This document shows, piece by piece, positions 1 to 41,858 of a DNA stretch of 41,858 nt. The stretch is from UHGV virus genome UHGV-0466892; one strand, given 5' to 3'. The stretch's first letter is position 1, and every line of letters begins with the position of its first letter. A model generated the notes under the pieces. It saw nothing but the letters and a program-made list of their open reading frames with translations. It had not been told where the DNA came from and did not search any database. Origin of the DNA: a virus. A program made the translations under genes and the position numbers.

Positions 1-361
1 GATAATCCAGCCACAAATTATATTGCGCCAGTTCCTCACCTTTCAGACGACCAATCGCCGCTTTACCAGGCCATTGCTTACTGTTTATGTATTCGTTGAC
101 CTGATTAATCAATTGCTGCTTTTCCAATTCGGCTGCGGCAATTTGTTCCTCATGAGTTGGCGGTGGAATATCAATCCATGCAGGCATTCTGTCGATGACA
201 CCTCTGTATTTTCCTTCTGGTGCTTCCTTCATAAATTCGGCGGCAACAGTGTCGTCAATTTCGATTCCATCATCTGGCCATTCGCCGGATTCCTGATAAG
301 CGATTTTAAGCTCCACAGGGAAAAACGCATTTTTATTGGCACTGAAAATATATTTCTGCAT
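1..361 (-). CDS. tail fiber assembly protein (Tfa), 5' part; the ORF runs off the window start and continues at 41858..41779
   Basis: Not in the ORF track because it has no stop inside the window. ATG at 361-359; translation MQKYIFSANKNAFFPVELKIAYQESGEWPDDGIEIDD...GRLKGEELAQYNLWLDY is typical of the lambda Tfa / Mu U family; lies 2 nt downstream of the fiber gene stop. Confidence 0.8.
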   Translation of the reverse strand, partial: MQKYIFSANKNAFFPVELKIAYQESGEWPDDGIEIDDTVAAEFMKEAPEGKYRGVIDRMPAWIDIPPPTHEEQIAAAELEKQQLINQVNEYINSKQWPGKAAIGRLKGEELAQYNLWLDY

Positions 362-363
362 TT

Positions 364-1170
364 CTACCGTCCTATCGAAATATAACTGAATCTGTATTGC
401 TGTGAGATATCACTGGTTGCCACACGCCACGCTGAATTACTGATATGTTCAAAATTTACAGACAAAACCTGCGGGGCAGGATTCGACGGGTCTGACTGAA
501 CGGCATCAGACATAACACTGACTGAAACCATCGGCTGATTAGGGAATGGTATAGGGAAGTGTCCACTGATAAAGCGGGTCGTGTTTCCTGAAAAAGTGCC
601 AAACTGAACAATATATCCACCTGGTAGCCTGAACCATCCCGAACCAGAAGCGAATGCTCCCATATCCGGTATCTGATTTTCCCCCGTCCCGACATTCCTT
701 TTCGATGCCGTTCCCAAACCAAGGTATGTGAGAATGTCAGCAATAGTATTTTTCCCAATAATGTCACGGCCAACAGAAGTTAAATCAGTCTGCGCTGCTG
801 TATCATTTCCAGTGAAATATGGGAGTTTATTTGCACCTGTTGCGAGCCCAGCTAATGCCGACAGCGTGGCATCAAGCGCCTGGAAATCTTTCCCGAAAGC
901 GGTCCCCATTTTGGATATAAACCCGTTCAGGTCTCCATCATCAAGCACATCCAGCCTGCTTTTGTTGGCGGTGTACTGCGCCAACGCTGCCGCGATAAAG
1001 CTGGCTTGCCGAATAGCTTTGTTGACCTGTGCGCTGGATGCTTTACCTGCCGTAAACCCTGAAAGCAGAGCCGGAAGTGCTTCCCAGTCAGCTTGTGAGG
1101 TGACGTTAGCGTTCGGATCAAGCGCGAAAGGTTTAAAGTTGTTTATTGCCATTAGAGTATTGTCCCCCAT
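364..1170 (-). CDS. tail fiber protein (gpH-like); constant N-terminal part about residues 1-153, variable C-terminal part after a GLG motif
   Basis: 268-aa ORF positioned after baseplate J and gpI-like genes and before Tfa; the internal gix-like site at 709-734 divides constant and variable parts. Confidence 0.75.
   Translation of the reverse strand: MGDNTLMAINNFKPFALDPNANVTSQADWEALPALLSGFTAGKASSAQVNKAIRQASFIAAALAQYTANKSRLDVLDDGDLNGFISKMGTAFGKDFQALDATLSALAGLATGANKLPYFTGNDTAAQTDLTSVGRDIIGKNTIADILTYLGLGTASKRNVGTGENQIPDMGAFASGSGWFRLPGGYIVQFGTFSGNTTRFISGHFPIPFPNQPMVSVSVMSDAVQSDPSNPAPQVLSVNFEHISNSAWRVATSDISQQYRFSYISIGR
709..734. other. gix/hix-like inversion crossover site inside the tail fiber gene
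   Basis: Plus strand cgttcccaaacc aa ggtatgtgagaa; falls exactly at the GLG codons (fiber residues 151-153) that also occur at the head of the start-less fiber cassette. Confidence 0.6.
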
Positions 1171-1832
1171 GCTCCAACATCGAACCCGCCGATGTATTCG
1201 TTATCCATATCAAACCCAAAGAATTTAGAGCCCTCGGATGGTGCTTCTACCGAAGGCGTTTCAACATCACCGGCCCATACGCCAGCTGCTTTAACGGTGA
1301 GATAGCCCTGTTTGATAGCGGCAATCAGTTCAAGAGACACATCAGAAATATCAGTCTCGGGGAATACCCAAACCGATATCGTCATGTCCTGGTTGTCGAC
1401 AATTTGCATCCTCAGGCCTGAGCCTTCAGTCGCAGCGTCAAGGATGGGAGGCAGAGAGTCGTTCCGACCGTCCCAGTTGTTGATAGCGATTTTCGCTTTC
1501 AGAATGATGCGGTACGTCTCATCGCTTAGCGTCGTATAGCCAGAATCAGGATCATATGGCCCTTGCCAGATGCCCTGGTCATACCCAAGCCCGTCAGTGT
1601 CCCAGCTGAAATAAACTCCGCTAATTGGCTGGCTGACTATGCGACTGCGTCCGATCCACAGACCGAGGATGTCGAGCTGTACACCGACAGCAGTATCAAT
1701 ATCGAAGGCTGTTATAAGCCCTGACATAGTGCTGGACACATCAATCAGCGGGCGGGTGCTCAGATCTATATGGTCAAAAAAGAGTGGCTTGGTAGCGTGG
1801 TAGTTAGTGATCAGTTCGGTGTATTTGCTCAT
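1152..1832 (-). CDS. baseplate/tail protein, P2 gpI-like
   Basis: 226-aa ORF between baseplate J-like gene and tail fiber, matching the P2 V-W-J-I-H-G gene order; family assignment by position and size only. Confidence 0.55.
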   Translation of the reverse strand: MSKYTELITNYHATKPLFFDHIDLSTRPLIDVSSTMSGLITAFDIDTAVGVQLDILGLWIGRSRIVSQPISGVYFSWDTDGLGYDQGIWQGPYDPDSGYTTLSDETYRIILKAKIAINNWDGRNDSLPPILDAATEGSGLRMQIVDNQDMTISVWVFPETDISDVSLELIAAIKQGYLTVKAAGVWAGDVETPSVEAPSEGSKFFGFDMDNEYIGGFDVGAWGTIL

Positions 1833-3028
1833 GAGGTCACCGTGATACTGATATTCGCGGTGCTACAGGACGCAGAAGCATCATAGGCAATATCAATGTT
1901 TGATGCCGATACGCTGCCAGACGACTTACCGATCAGCAGGTCGGTAATATCGTAATAGCGGGCATTCCCGCCGCTCACAACGCCGAGGTTTGCCGGGGAA
2001 TAAATACGGCTCAGCAGAACGTCGTCGCCAATTGTTAGGCCATTTATATAATCGGCAACAGCCTGTTTAATCTGCTCGCCGATTTGAGAGGTATAGCCGG
2101 TAAAAACTTTCAGGGTAATGGCTACGAAAATTGGCACATCGGTAGAGCGCGAAAAACTGATGACGTGTGGATTACCGTAAGTATCCGGCACCGTGACAGA
2201 AGTTTTACCGTAAGTTGCGGTTCCCTGCCCTTTACTCCCCCGGATTGTTTGGGCTATCTCGGTAACATCCCCTCCATCGACGATGGCGGAAATAGAGTGT
2301 GGCGGCAGCCCGTTGCTGTCGGTTGCCCCAGTGTCGTTCTCATATAGTTTGTGACGTGTCACGCCAGCAACATTAGCGATAGCACCGTCGACACCTTCAA
2401 ACGGTGTGATCGATGGTAGCGCGACGCTTTGCCCCTGCCGAATGCGCAGCTCTGCGTCGGTTTCGGCTGGTGAACCGACAGTAGCCGCAACTGGATTGGT
2501 TACCGACACCCAACCTCGGGTCGGGGTGTTGATAGTGGTAATAGTCCCGGCCAGCGCCGCAACCGAACCGCTATTCGCACATGTGGCCGTCACCAGCACA
2601 GTACCATCAACGCCGATCGCTACACTTGCGGGAAAATTCCAGATAATGCCGTTTTTATCCCGTGCGGAGCCATTCGTGATAGTCGTGCCTGCCGTACCGG
2701 TTAACAGAAGGTCAGCAGTAGAGTTTGTCGCTACTTTTCGCGTGATCCCGTTAATTTTCACATTGCTGCTAAGCGCTGCGGCCTGCGCTGTCGTCGGTGA
2801 AAAAGAGTTGTAGATCCCGATAGCGGTGTTGTTAGCGTCATGCACGGCAAGAGCCACCAGCGCGACCATCTGCCCGTCTTTGCTGTCTGGTTCGAGGTAG
2901 GCATCACTACCGTAAATCTGCCTGAAATAGCTGGTCAGTGTATCTAGGATTGTCTGGTAATCAGGCGCACTAATCCCCTGGGCGGTTACCGTTGCCGATA
3001 GCCCCAGCGTGTCGAGGTTCAAAGCCAT
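1829..3028 (-). CDS. baseplate J-like protein (P2 gpJ / Mu gp47 family)
   Basis: 399-aa ORF, overlapping stop/start with neighbours; position in baseplate module; sequence character of baseplate J proteins. Confidence 0.75.
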   Translation of the reverse strand: MALNLDTLGLSATVTAQGISAPDYQTILDTLTSYFRQIYGSDAYLEPDSKDGQMVALVALAVHDANNTAIGIYNSFSPTTAQAAALSSNVKINGITRKVATNSTADLLLTGTAGTTITNGSARDKNGIIWNFPASVAIGVDGTVLVTATCANSGSVAALAGTITTINTPTRGWVSVTNPVAATVGSPAETDAELRIRQGQSVALPSITPFEGVDGAIANVAGVTRHKLYENDTGATDSNGLPPHSISAIVDGGDVTEIAQTIRGSKGQGTATYGKTSVTVPDTYGNPHVISFSRSTDVPIFVAITLKVFTGYTSQIGEQIKQAVADYINGLTIGDDVLLSRIYSPANLGVVSGGNARYYDITDLLIGKSSGSVSASNIDIAYDASASCSTANISITVTS

Positions 3029-25394: not shown

Positions 25395-25757
25395 TCATAC
25401 GGCCTCCAGCCCGGTGATTGTCAGTTCCAGCTTTCCACCTTTGGTAACGGGCATCTTCACAACGCGATAATCAACGACCTGAGCATCGTCCAGCCAGAAA
25501 CCTGCTTTGGTGAGTGCGTCAAAAGCGGCCTTTTGCAGATTATCCAGGTCACGGCGACGGCGATCCGGCATGTGGCACTCAATGCGGATTTTCACAGGCA
25601 TAGCCAGACCGATATCCAGCATTGCGTTTTTAATGATTCGGGCGACGTTATCGCGGTATGCCTGCCCTTCTGCGCTGATGTGCGTGCGCCCGCGATTATG
25701 GCGGTAGTAGCGGTTATTGCTCGGCGGCCAGGGCAATGTGATGTTGTAAGTATTCAC
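25395..25757 (-). CDS. rusA: Holliday junction resolvase RusA
   Basis: N-terminus (V)[22 protein letters not shown] matches the RusA family; GTG start overlaps the stop of the upstream gene (GTGA). Confidence 0.9.
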
Positions 25758-38401: not shown

Positions 38402-38599
38402 ATGGATGATATTTTGGTAACGTCAGACCTGACCAGTCGCTACAAAATTTCACGCAAAACCCTTTGGTCATGGCAAAGTGCAGACACAATGCCTCGGGGC
38501 TTCGTATGCCCGTTCCCACCCCCTGACTGGCCCGGCAACCCTAACCGCTGGCGCTCTGAGTCAATCAAAGAGTGGGAGGATAAAAAGAAGATAAATTAA
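38402..38599 (+). CDS. xis: excisionase / AlpA-family DNA-binding protein
   Basis: Start set at ATG 38402 ([25 protein letters not shown]...FPPPDW...WRSESIKEW) matching the AlpA/Xis HTH pattern; 3' end abuts the integrase 3' end. Confidence 0.6.
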
Positions 38600-39789
38600 C
38601 TGAAGGGCTCTCCGATGATCTCTTCAAGATGGCTCTGCCAAACGCGGAGCCAGTGTTTCTGATCATCGATATAGTCATGAAGGTTGTAATGCGCCATAAC
38701 CCCCACCATCTGATGCCCGAGCAGCTTTTCAATTACGTGCGGCGGGCAACCTAACTCAGAGAGATTTGTGGCTATCGTCCGCCTCATATCATGAAGCGAC
38801 CACTCTGCCATACCTGTTCCATTCCAAATAGAACGGGCGTAATTGGATGCCACAGGTGAATGAACGGGCGAATCTTTGATCCCGCCATCAATTTTACGTT
38901 GTGAAGTCACCAGGTGATTGGTGTTTATTTTCTTGAGGTGATTTCTGACCAAGTTAACGGCGGCGTCTGAGAGCCCCCTTCTAATATGTACCCGAGTTTT
39001 ATAACTGCCCGCAGGCACGACCCACTCATTATCATCCAATCGAAACCATGATCTCTCACTAAGTCGAATCTCAGCCGTACGGCATCCGGTAAGCATAATA
39101 AATTTCACCAGGAAAACGGACTCTATCGACATATGGCTTTTCAACCACTGATAGATTTTGCGCAGATCGTCATCGTCCATCCTGCGAGTTCTCTTTTTAG
39201 GCTTTTGCCCGACATCAGATGGCAGTAATCCCTCGAGTGGGTTTGAGGCGATCACACTTCTGTTAACGCAGAACCTAAACGCCCGTTTGCACAGCGAAAG
39301 CATGTAATGAGCCATCACCCTGCTTTCTATAGAATCGAAGACGTTGATCCAGTGCATTTTCGCTGTGTTATCGACTTTGACATTCTTCATCGGTTCGGCG
39401 ATATGTTTCTCAAACACCTGGCGATAGTAATCGACTTTAACTAGCCCGTTAGCGATACAGTGCCTTTCAATCCAGTAATTGAACGCTTCGGCAACGGACA
39501 TCGCTTCCTGTCGGGTCTGCTTATCCAGCTTCACCTGCTCTCGCGGATCCAGTCCCTCAGTTAACCAGTTTCTGAATTGTTGGCGACGCTCTCTTGCCTG
39601 GGTGATACTCATTGCAGGATAATCACCAACATTGAGTTTTACCGCTTTACCGGCCCAGCGATACCGATAGAAAAATGATATTTTTCCGGCCTGGCTGATT
39701 CTGGCGTTGAGCCCGTGCGAATCAGAAATAATCTCGATATCATCTCTTTTCTTGCCGAGCGCCTTCCTGAGCTTTGTGTCGGTGATCAT
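38596..39789 (-). CDS. int: tyrosine site-specific integrase (P4-like family)
   Basis: Start set at the Met of [14 protein letters not shown]...[10 protein letters not shown] (typical N-terminus); C-terminal HDMRRT ... LGH ... AHY region carries the catalytic R/H/Y motifs; the track start at 39846 is a GTG through upstream repeats. Confidence 0.85.
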
Positions 39790-39794
39790 TGAAT

Positions 39795-39835
39795 GGGTAC
39801 ACATTTTTGTTTTTGGGTACACAAAAGTGTACACA
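39795..39835. repeat. three direct repeats G(G/T)GTACACA upstream of int (candidate regulator or arm-type sites)
   Basis: gggtacaca at 39795-39803 and 39815-39823, gtgtacaca at 39827-39835. Confidence 0.45.
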
Positions 39836-40060
39836 AAGTTGCCCACTCAAAGCTACACGCAATGTAACACTAGTTCGCAGAGTGTTATGGTTTACATCCT
39901 TGAAAGCCTGCTGGATAAGGGTTTAGCGTAACAGAACGTTTTTACGCGGAATTGTTCGTAATATGCCAAATGACAATTTAAGAAAGTGTTCTAATTTATT
40001 AGAAATTTGCACTTAAATCAAAAAGTTACGGACAATTCAACCACCAGTCAATAAATTAAA

Positions 40061-40092
40061 GGGCACATTAAAGTACACAATATTTGTGCCCT
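40061..40092 (-). terminator. terminator-like hairpin downstream of the invertase gene
   Basis: gggcaca ... tgtgccc 7-bp stem with an 18-nt loop, flanked by A/T-rich sequence on both sides. Confidence 0.4.
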
Positions 40093-40112
40093 TCTCTGTT
40101 TCTTTCCCGTTA

Positions 40113-40661
40113 TCAGCTAGCTGGAAACTTTTTATACAGAGTTGAGAGCCCTACTCCATACGTTTTTGATACGCTTTGTCGTGATTCACCGGTTGCCATC
40201 CGCTCCCCCATTTCCCGCCATTGCTCATCCGTGAACTTAGGCCTGCGACCACCAACTCGCCCTTTTGCCCTGGCTACGGCCAGCCCTGCTAAGGTACGTT
40301 CGCTATTAAGATCAGATTCATATTGTGCTGCGGAAAGGATGTTACGAAAGTTATAGCGGCCGCTGGCTGTTTTGAGATCCACGCCATCGGTAATACTGCG
40401 GAAGTTGATACCCTTTTCCTGTAACTGCTGGAACATCAACAGCGCATGCAGAACGTTGCGGCCTATCCTGTCCAGCTTCCAGACCACCAGTTCATCCCCC
40501 GGCTGCATAGTGGCGATCAGCCGTTTTAGAACCGGCCGATTCGATTTCCTCCCGCTGGCATGCTCTTCAAAAATTTTCTCACAACCCGCTGACTTGAGCG
40601 CCGTTAGTTGCAATTCAGTGTCCTGGTGGTTTGTTGATACTCGGGCATAACCGTAAATCAT
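40113..40661 (-). CDS. serine recombinase, DNA invertase of the Hin/Gin/Cin/Pin family
   Basis: Start set at MIYGYARVSTNHQDTELQ (catalytic Ser-containing N-terminus); C-terminal HTH; GGAGA Shine-Dalgarno; lies adjacent to an invertible fiber segment. Confidence 0.9.
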   Translation of the reverse strand: MIYGYARVSTNHQDTELQLTALKSAGCEKIFEEHASGRKSNRPVLKRLIATMQPGDELVVWKLDRIGRNVLHALLMFQQLQEKGINFRSITDGVDLKTASGRYNFRNILSAAQYESDLNSERTLAGLAVARAKGRVGGRRPKFTDEQWREMGERMATGESRQSVSKTYGVGLSTLYKKFPAS

Positions 40662-40665
40662 GGGA

Positions 40666-40692
40666 TTTCTCCTGTTATGAAAACAGGAGAAA
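40666..40692. repeat. perfect 11-bp inverted repeat tttctcctgtt / aacaggagaaa spanning the invertase ribosome-binding site
   Basis: Arms at 40666-40676 and 40682-40692 with a 5-nt spacer; the left arm supplies the invertase Shine-Dalgarno on the minus strand. Confidence 0.5.
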
Positions 40693-40713
40693 CGGCGAAG
40701 CATCACCAGATTT

Positions 40714-41205
40714 TTGATGGTTATAAAAAAGGTTGGTTTGGGAGAAGGCTCAGCGTTACCCGTTGGTGTACCTGTTCCGTGGCCTTCAGCCACTCCTCCA
40801 ACAGGCTGGCTGAAATGCAATGGTGCGCCTTTTTCTGCCGCACAATATCCGAAGTTGGCACTGGCTTATCCTAGTCTGGCATTGCCGAATTTACGCGGTG
40901 AGTTCATCCGTGGCTGGGATGACGGGCGCGGTATTGACGCGGGGCGCGAAATTCTGTCTGCTCAGGGTGACGCCATTCGAAATATCGTTGGACACATCTC
41001 ATGCGTGCGTCGTGGGAGTGGATTTTCAGACCTTAAAGATGGCGCGTTTAGATACGATAGCAACTGGTCTACAAAAATTAAAGGGGATGGGGTCGAAGAC
41101 GACTGGGGGAGCGTAGTCTCATTTGATGCCAGTCGCGTAGTTCCAACTGCACCAGAAAACCGTCCACGCAGTATCGCATTTAACTTCATCGTGAGGGCCG
41201 CATAA
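40714..41205 (+). CDS. alternative tail fiber C-terminal (receptor-binding) cassette, start-less; expressed only after inversion
   Basis: Frame open from 40681 with no proper ATG or Shine-Dalgarno; KKVGLGEGSALPVGVPVPWPSATPPTGWLKCNGAPFSAAQYP...LRGEFIRGWDDGRGID is a typical variable fiber C-terminus. Confidence 0.7.
   Translation: MMVIKKVGLGEGSALPVGVPVPWPSATPPTGWLKCNGAPFSAAQYPKLALAYPSLALPNLRGEFIRGWDDGRGIDAGREILSAQGDAIRNIVGHISCVRRGSGFSDLKDGAFRYDSNWSTKIKGDGVEDDWGSVVSFDASRVVPTAPENRPRSIAFNFIVRAA
40721..40746. other. gix/hix-like inversion crossover site (partner of 709-734)
   Basis: TTATAAAAAAGG TT GGTTTGGGAGAA; the right half and TT core match the reverse complement of the site inside the fiber gene (TTCTCACATACC TT GGTTTGGGAACG). 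Confidence 0.6.
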
Positions 41206-41807
41206 TGACACAGGCAAAATTAAACAGTGAATTTATTGCCACAGTAGCGGGTGATATTACCGTCTATAACTATGACAACACGACACGGGAATACATTTCA
41301 TCATCAACAGAATATCTTGCCGTTGGCGTCGGTATCCCGGCATGTTCTTGTTTAGATGCGCCAGTTACACATAAAGCTGGTTATGCAATCTGCCGTTCTG
41401 CAGATTTTAACTCATGGGAATATGTGCCAGACCATCGCGGTGAAATCATCTATAGCACCGAAACAGGAGAATCGAAAGAAATCACAGCTCTGGGTGATTA
41501 CCCTGAAAATACAACCACTATCGCCCCGTTAACGCCATATGATAAATGGGATGGTGAGAAATGGGTGACGGATACTGAGGCACAGCATAGCGCCGCAGTA
41601 GAAGCGGCAGAAGCACAGCGCCAGTCACTGATTGATGCAGCAATGGCTTCCATTAGTCTGATTCAGCTGAAATTACAGGCCGGACGTAAACTTACGCAGG
41701 CAGAAACAACCAGGCTTAACGCTGTGCTGGATTACATTGACGCGGTGACGGCAACAGATACCAGCACCGCGCCGGATGTCATCTGGCCTGAACTGCCGGA
41801 GGTGTAG
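41205..41807 (+). CDS. tail fiber assembly protein (alternative Tfa)
   Basis: 200 aa; C-terminus ...TDTSTAPDVIWPELPEV is a typical Tfa ending; ATGA-coupled to the fiber cassette. Confidence 0.85.
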   Translation: MTQAKLNSEFIATVAGDITVYNYDNTTREYISSSTEYLAVGVGIPACSCLDAPVTHKAGYAICRSADFNSWEYVPDHRGEIIYSTETGESKEITALGDYPENTTTIAPLTPYDKWDGEKWVTDTEAQHSAAVEAAEAQRQSLIDAAMASISLIQLKLQAGRKLTQAETTRLNAVLDYIDAVTATDTSTAPDVIWPELPEV

Positions 41808-41858
41808 GCCATTCAATATCTGGCGCACCGGAAGTATCGACCAGTTCCAGTGTGTCCA
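41779..41858 (-). CDS. 3' end of the Tfa gene that begins at 361 (continuation across the window junction)
   Basis: Reading the minus strand from position 1 into 41858 keeps the frame: ...NLWLDY-LDTLELVDTSGAPDIEWPTPPAVQAR-stop at 41781-41779, a typical Tfa C-terminus. Confidence 0.6.
   Translation of the reverse strand, partial: DTLELVDTSGAPDIEWPTPPAVQAR

Follow-up and report, generated by a model that had tools for sequence, protein, structure and literature searches.

The two ends of UHGV-0466892, a virus genome of 41,858 nucleotides analysed here over its whole length as one strand, 5' to 3' (the window), raise the question of whether a phage can exchange the receptor-binding end of its tail fibre by inverting a segment of its own DNA. 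The original prediction, read from the sequence, had placed a Hin/Gin/Pin-family invertase at 40113-40661 beside a start-less fibre C-terminal cassette and a second assembly protein (Tfa; 40714-41807), both facing the expressed fibre/Tfa pair (1-1170) across the junction of the two ends. All of these parts were recovered, and it is highly likely that together they constitute a two-state, site-specific DNA inversion switch of the Hin/Gin/Cin/Pin kind that sets the receptor-binding end of the tail fibre. The switch is very probably functional; we infer inversion in this phage, along with its rate, its cofactors and the receptors recognised. The locus is a new example of a well-known mechanism, that of the G segment of phage Mu, the C segment of phage P1 and the P segment of e14, a cryptic prophage of Escherichia coli K-12.

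Crossover sites and reading frame

Two crossover sites of 26 bp were found, each made up of 12-bp, imperfectly symmetric halves around a 2-bp core. Site A lies inside the fibre gene at 709-734 (CGTTCCCAAACC AA GGTATGTGAGAA), with its core at 721-722 in codon L150, and site B lies next to the invertase at 40721-40746 (TTATAAAAAAGG TT GGTTTGGGAGAA), with its core at 40733-40734. The sites are inverted relative to each other and have the same core, read as AA on one strand and TT on the other; the perfect repeat that they share extends over 11 nucleotides only. A site matrix was built from eight distinct half-sites read directly from Mu gix, annotated P1 cix and e14 pix, and every 26-mer of the window was scored with it. 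Sites A and B ranked first and second of approximately 42,000 positions at 20.2 bits each, against 7.0 bits for the next position and a maximum of 13.1 bits in 30 shuffles, so that the two inverted sites proposed at these positions are confirmed by comparison with gix, cix and pix. The same whole-window scan yielded no additional crossover site above background of the sort expected of a Min-like multi-inversion system. With only two sites above background, the locus corresponds to a simple two-state switch and not to a multi-inversion shuffler. Site B includes the 16-mer TTGGTTTGGGAGAAGG, published as the inverted repeat of the e14 P segment (PMC12529663), and the homology of phages HK225 and phi80 to the window stops inside this site, at 40744-40747.

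Both cores occupy codon positions 2-3 immediately before GGT TTG GGA (G-L-G), within a shared L/V-G-L-G motif (xTT GGT TTG GGA), in agreement with the predicted TT core on GLG codons. Since the cores lie in the same codon phase, exchange at the cores keeps the frame. The fusion generated in silico by flipping the segment is in frame and open to its stop (...ILTYLGLGEGSALPVGVPVPWPS...NFIVRAA*), and in the inverted genome fibre residues 1-150 are followed by GLGEGSALPVGVPVPWPS...NFIVRAA* and then by a TfaE-like assembly protein. The crossover is thus within the fibre frame and the constant N-terminus can be joined in frame to either cassette; the earlier expectation that inversion would fuse the constant N-terminus to an alternative domain and swap the Tfa holds for the sequence. 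The constant part had been given as residues 1-153. The crossover point lies in L150; residues 151-153 (GLG) are common to both forms, so that the wider figure is acceptable.

Organisation of the invertible segment

The segment between the two cores measures 1,844 bp (40735-41858 plus 1-720), close to the 1.85 kb first proposed. The expressed fibre gene runs on the minus strand from 1170 to 364 and encodes 268 amino acids. Its constant N-terminal part, residues 1-150 (723-1170), is not included in the invertible segment and follows the baseplate genes; many E. coli prophages match it at 100% identity up to a point within approximately 10-13 nucleotides of the core, inside site A. The variable C-terminus, residues 151-268 plus the stop codon (364-720, minus strand), carries the Pfam domain Gp53-like_C (E 2.5e-8) over residues 181-268. 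It is followed on the same strand by an assembly protein of 146 amino acids, the 5' part of which occupies 1-361 (ATG at 361-359; Caudo_TAP, E 9.5e-34) and the 3' end of which continues from position 1 into 41858-41779 (TGA at 41781-41779).

The silent alternative C-terminal cassette is found on the plus strand at 40735-41205 and comprises 156 codons plus a stop, its own start being absent. The open reading frame at 40714-41205 has a mechanical TTG start only, without a Shine-Dalgarno sequence at a usable distance, and a consensus promoter scan detected nothing reading into the silent cassette. The encoded product bears a Collar domain (Pfam, E 1.1e-14) and matches the solved structures of a short tail fiber (9cuy, E 1.9e-30) and of T4 gp37 (2xgf, E 3e-16) at the sequence level. 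Its assembly protein, a TfaE-like product of 200 amino acids, is encoded at 41205-41807 on the plus strand (Pfam Caudo_TAP, E 8e-33). Each cassette is therefore followed by its own Caudo_TAP gene, the two sets being convergent; the silent set lacks a start, as originally described, and also a promoter. The convergent assembly-protein genes overlap by 29 nucleotides at their 3' ends (41779-41807). The conserved C-terminal motif ...D(T/V)S.APDI.WP... is encoded on both strands of this overlap, once for each assembly protein. The two cassettes bear unrelated domains (Gp53-like_C and Collar), which is consistent with the recognition of different receptors. No sequence-level match to a solved structure was obtained for the Gp53-like cassette, and NCBIfam returned a specific family for none of the parts of the switch.

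The expressed set spans the point at which the genome sequence is opened. The window represents a circularly permuted temperate enterobacterial phage genome, the two ends of which are truly adjacent. In Klebsiella phages such as Kp4845-2, the sequences equivalent to window 41155-41858 and window 1-740 are contiguous (record positions 25633|25634), and both window ends are contiguous in the circular genome of Citrobacter phage Omnitron (41,923 bp). The junction is accepted as genuine because an open frame crosses 1|41858 and because the ends are contiguous in other phage records; an assembly or window artefact at the two ends is ruled out on the same grounds. The expressed pair thus does face the silent set across the junction, as had been suggested.

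In the mechanism proposed, the minus-strand late operon would be transcribed through the baseplate genes, then the fibre and then the assembly protein, with only the first 150 codons of the fibre forming a fixed portion. The PinL-type invertase would bind both 26-bp sites, cut at the identical 2-bp cores and rotate the 1,844-bp segment by 180 degrees. The fibre would end in the Gp53-like domain in the present orientation, with the 146-residue assembly protein behind it, and after inversion would acquire the Collar-type end (approximately 306 residues in total), followed by the 200-residue TfaE-like assembly protein. On the model of Mu, P1 and e14, lysogens as a population would be expected to shed particles of two receptor specificities. 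Lysates of such phages may mix both specificities, which is relevant to host-range assays and to phage engineering, and assemblies of prophages can differ by a 1.8-kb inversion without being in error.

Orientation in related phages

A 24-mer from the constant side of site A identified 48 loci in IMG/VR. The loci agree in the constant DNA and the outer half-site; most have TTCTCCCAAACC as the inner half-site, and at least 15 unrelated cassettes follow. Conservation of the outer half with unrelated sequences beyond the inner half places the break exactly at the core. Four of the loci (L007, L012, L023 and L045) have TTCTCCCAATTG in place of TTCTCCCAAACC, with four core-adjacent bases changed and the constant side kept. 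On the other side, a 23-mer beside the invertase identified 29 IMG/VR loci with an identical junction. The silent cassette in these loci is of the Collar type, as in the window, in about 10, of the Gp53 type in about 12 and of another kind in the remaining 7, and the Gp53-type silent cassettes are homologous to the expressed cassette of the window.

Alignments spanning the junctions gave the current arrangement for 8 loci and the flipped arrangement for 11 on the invertase side, and for 7 and 8 loci, respectively, on the fibre side. One locus, L021, aligned with the flipped window continuously over 1,811 bp at 97.5% identity, from attP through the invertase and site B to the cassette varA and its assembly gene; here, a 97% identical copy of the Gp53-like cassette adjoins the invertase in the opposite orientation. 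The flipped joint on the fibre side, in which a window-type Collar cassette stands on a window-type constant region, was seen in L098 and L129. Both arrangements exist in nature among relatives that share the invertase and the constant region.

The 29-mer that ends the Collar cassette was also followed through metagenomes and IMG/VR (L081-L131), where at least 15 different sequences adjoin it exactly at the AA core, among them e14-type invertase-proximal sites, the invertase-proximal sequence of the window itself (L078) and many unrelated fibre constant regions. Judging from these junctions, the crossover site serves as a universal joint at which enterobacterial phages build mosaic tail fibres. 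More distant relatives in Salmonella and Morganella (79-85% identity) keep the order of fibre, assembly protein, convergent assembly protein, Gp53-like cassette and invertase, together with a fibre-internal site and a proximal site of the form xxxxxxxAAACC AA CCTTT....TAA. Counted from coordinates, the far end of the proximal site is 85 nucleotides from the invertase ATG in the window and 85-86 nucleotides from it in the Salmonella and Morganella relatives.

In 5,426 complete E. coli genomes neither the current nor the flipped junction of the window was matched exactly at 80% coverage or above; only the constant part (100% identity) and related cassettes were matched, and a same-strain pair of orientations was not found. 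The constant-side 24-mer gave a single Citrobacter contig in a scan of genome contigs, cut at the site and uninformative as to orientation. The exact varA junction 26-mer had 3 matches in IMG/VR, all on other constant regions and none beside an invertase.

The invertase and its regulation

The invertase gene (40113-40661, minus strand) encodes 182 amino acids plus a stop and reads away from the invertible segment. Its product is a serine DNA invertase of the PinL type with Pfam domains Resolvase (E 3.6e-39) and HTH_7, 52% identical to Gin, 52% to Cin and 55% to PinE, the e14 enzyme; with phi80 PinL the identity is 100% over all 172 residues of that protein. The catalytic Ser9 is conserved in the alignment with Gin, Cin and PinE, as are R7, D64, R65 and R68. 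Among solved structures the best matches are to Gin (3uj3 and 4m6f, E 1e-56), compared with 1e-25 for resolvases and 4e-25 for gamma-delta resolvase. The enzyme is accordingly a small serine recombinase, of a length usual for the family (about 180-195 residues) and with a serine nucleophile in an N-terminal catalytic domain and a C-terminal helix-turn-helix, that is nearer to the invertases than to the resolvases, and its assignment to the Hin/Gin/Pin family stands. Many contigs carry a 100% identical copy, and proteins of at least 79% identity are common in Escherichia, Citrobacter, Klebsiella, Enterobacter, Salmonella, Serratia, Morganella and other genera.

Site B is separated from the invertase start by a fixed spacer (40662-40720, minus strand) holding a hairpin with a 12-bp stem, UUUCUCCUGUUuucauAACAGGAGAAA, at 40662-40692 of the minus-strand transcript. 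The hairpin covers the invertase Shine-Dalgarno sequence (AGGAG). The predicted fold of minus-strand RNA from 40650-40720 has a free energy of -23.1 kcal/mol (z = -5.1), and none of 200 shuffles was as stable; in the phi80 record the region is labelled IR3. The hairpin may keep invertase translation low or block read-through out of the late operon. No invertase promoter was found by a consensus scan of the minus strand upstream. A weak TATAAC overlaps the outer half-site, and to call it an invertase promoter would be a guess only.

Systems of this family have a recombinational enhancer that acts in cis and contains two Fis sites, as a rule towards the 5' end of the invertase gene. The first 150 nucleotides of the invertase gene align with those of gin, cin and pinE. 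Shared 15-mers of the form G-N13-C are centred on nucleotides 29, 78 and 101, and the window keeps those at 29 and 101 and loses that at 78, a pattern that is not separable from coding constraint.

Residues uniquely conserved in invertases that depend on Fis and an enhancer have been reported as Hin K47, K/R48 and K/R51 in helix B, and Q151, R154 and L155 in helix 1 of the DNA-binding domain (PMC3798978). In the window invertase the corresponding residues are K46, R47 and A50, and E150, E153 and R154. The Fis-dependent hallmarks are incomplete, and within the PinL clade residue 50 may be A, S, G or T, with variation also at all three helix-1 positions. Helix E of Hin contains a Phe104-Phe105-Phe106 switch and a hydrophobic ratchet formed by M109 and L112, and F105N is among the substitutions that confer Fis-independent activity (PMC4513852). 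The window invertase has Y103, N104 and F105 in place of the three phenylalanines, only the equivalent of the essential Hin F106 being kept, and I108 and A111 in place of the ratchet residues. The Y-N-F residues of helix E, I108 and A111 are invariant in the PinL clade, here represented in Escherichia, Citrobacter, Salmonella, Serratia, Morganella and Yokenella. The alignment with Hin is ungapped in these regions and has invariant residues on both sides.

It is conceivable, if on balance doubtful, that PinL-type invertases constitute a natural subclass that needs neither Fis nor the enhancer or is otherwise regulated; besides the window enzyme, this subclass would take in its many prophage-borne relatives in Escherichia, Citrobacter, Klebsiella, Enterobacter, Salmonella, Serratia and Morganella. 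The idea is suggested by the missing Fis-contact residues (Hin Q151, R154 and L155) and the loss of one of the three basic residues of helix B, by the asparagine at the position of Hin Phe105, where F105N is Fis-independent in Hin, and by a conserved proximal half-site of the CC type and not the GG type. Expression in the PinL clade may be limited instead by the conserved hairpin over the ribosome-binding site. Together, the residue departures, the hairpin and the enhancer result allow regulation unlike that of Hin and Gin; they do not demonstrate it. Were the clade Fis-independent, it could hypothetically supply naturally deregulated small invertases as tools. The departure of the PinL clade from the Fis hallmarks is the sole point at this locus that is not textbook, and is potentially new.

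Comparison with known inversion systems

The nearest known system is, from sequence comparison, the P segment of e14 with its invertase PinE. Inversion of that segment in culture has been shown experimentally (PMC4272514, PMC12529663). The two loci have in common a constant fibre, a Gp53-like cassette, an assembly protein, a convergent TfaE-type assembly protein, a Collar cassette, a site and an outward-reading invertase. The e14 genes tfaP and tfaE show the same 29-nucleotide convergent overlap as the assembly genes of the window, and the e14 crossover lies in the same LGLGE-coding motif, in a segment of 1,797 bp compared with 1,844 bp. The window DNA at the silent assembly gene is 87.9% identical over 782 bp to the region of tfaE and the 3' end of tfaP, and the 200-residue product of that gene closely resembles e14 TfaE, likewise of 200 amino acids. 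The systems differ in the invertase, with 55% identity between that of the window and PinE, in the proximal outer half-site, which is CCTTTTTTATAA in the window and not CGTTTATGAAAA, and in the constant part of the fibre and both receptor-binding domains. Furthermore, e14 is a defective remnant whereas the window is seemingly a complete phage.

The locus had been likened to the Mu G segment. All structural elements of a switch of the Mu G, P1 C or e14 P type are present. Shared with Mu are the logic, the gene order (Sc, Sv, U, then U', S'v, then gin) and sites of 26 bp with a 2-bp core, and gin, like the window invertase gene, follows its segment and is read in the outward direction. The e14 P segment is nonetheless the more exact analogue, since site B holds the e14 16-mer and the silent assembly protein resembles TfaE. 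The Mu segment is about 3 kb in length, with perfect repeats of 34 bp and a TC/GA core, in contrast to the 11 nucleotides and AA/TT core of the window; the window invertase is 52% identical to Gin and the cassettes have no DNA similarity. The P1 C segment shares the AA/TT core, and the outer half-site GGTATGTGAGAA of the window resembles the GGTATTGGATAA half of cixR. Constant DNA beside site A (716-882) aligns with P1 Sc, of the S gene, next to cixR (68.9% over 167 bp). Unlike the window invertase gene, however, cin lies on the other side of its segment and reads toward it, cixL overlaps the 3' end of cin, and the segment is 4.2 kb long.

Phages phi80 (L003, 4244-5030), HK225 and mEp237 share with the window a block of 95-99.6% identical DNA comprising attP, the invertase and site B. 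These are siphoviruses with one site and a fragment of a Collar pseudogene, whereas the window has two sites and two cassettes. The invertase is regarded as an orphan in all three because only the single site and the pseudogene fragment remain. As annotated, phi80 PinL ends 10 residues earlier than the window enzyme and so lacks part of the final helix of its DNA-binding domain. The 'orphan' PinL invertase of phi80 and HK225 thus has a natural substrate elsewhere. Min of p15B and other multi-site shufflers belong to the same enzyme family and serve the same purpose, tail-fibre diversification, but the window has two sites only.

Alternative explanations

Several observations count against a working inversion switch. 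The outer half-site proximal to the invertase scores only 4.0 bits, with CC where the canonical sequence has GG or CG. No recombinational enhancer was identified with confidence by alignment and a simple G-N13-C scan. The invertase is without several residues reported as conserved in Fis-dependent enzymes, and its regulation and level of activity are uncertain on that account. The evidence on orientation is at the level of populations, drawn across relatives and not from a single clone, and the differences among relatives could in part have come from cassette exchange between phages. The low-scoring half-site and the enhancer result would also fit a frozen or decaying switch, the parts of which are still recognisable while inversion has been lost (through the weak half-site, a missing enhancer or a poor invertase), leaving the second cassette as a silent relic. 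That such modules decay in some phages is evident from phi80 and HK225, where the same invertase gene is accompanied by one site and a fragmentary Collar pseudogene. For the window, decay is improbable: the 156-codon silent cassette and the 200-residue assembly protein are fully open, the invertase is full-length and recurs unchanged in many contigs, and relatives show the two arrangements in roughly equal numbers. Divergent members keep the CC-type proximal half-site with its spacing, which looks like a feature of the clade rather than a sign of decay.

Were the arrangements in relatives produced purely by horizontal exchange of cassettes at the GLG-coding motif, through homologous or illegitimate recombination, the invertase would have had no part in them. 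The joint is certainly a hot spot for mosaicism, given that the same 29-nucleotide end of the Collar cassette stands on at least 15 partners and at least 15 cassettes follow the same constant region. The break, however, coincides exactly with the 2-bp core of a recombinase site and not with just any point in the shared repeat of approximately 11 nucleotides, the invertase gene always lies alongside at a constant spacing, and L021 has the same block of cassette and assembly protein inverted in place beside the same invertase. Exchange between phages by way of these sites would itself be most simply mediated by the invertase, and exchange as the whole explanation is very unlikely. Equally hard to credit is the proposal that inversion mainly serves the lysogenic host, with chimeric fibre fragments blocking other phages as in the action of PinQ on the e14 P segment. 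Inversion of that segment is reported to yield StfE2, which blocks adsorption of T2 (PMC12529663), and site B shares the 16-mer of the e14 inverted repeat. Against this, the switch sits in an apparently complete phage genome, the fibre gene is at the end of an intact baseplate operon, and the fusion on the invertase side has no start codon in either orientation, so that a second chimeric protein is not expected. A two-state inversion switch that sets the specificity of the phage particle itself best accommodates the evidence.

Genome context

Head, tail, lysis, replication and integration modules are all present in the window, which appears to be a complete phage genome. The structural region is 96% identical over 73% to unannotated Citrobacter phage Omnitron, the nearest relative, with Hafnia phage yong1 next. 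Omnitron has the same architecture and orientation as the window and a different expressed cassette. The locus adds a complete, apparently functional switch, putatively of host range, to the widespread temperate enterobacterial myoviruses related to this phage. Upstream of the fibre gene, Pfam identified a DUF2612 baseplate protein at 1152-1832 and Baseplate_J at 1829-3028. The region from 1200 to 39846 is a hybrid of a myovirus-type module for tail and baseplate (Baseplate_J, DUF2612) with a lambdoid region for early functions and lysis, which includes RecE/RecT, replication protein P, Q, RusA and Rz-type lysis genes.

The integrase gene is located at 38596-39846, and the attP region (39847-40112) separates it from the invertase gene. 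Alignments with integrated E. coli prophages break off at 39995, coinciding with the phi80 attP core placed by annotation transfer at approximately 39973-39989. From the end of the prophage matches and the position of attP, the invertase and switch would stand at one end of the prophage and the integrase at the other. In the HK225 record, the attP of that phage is similar to the host gene yciI.

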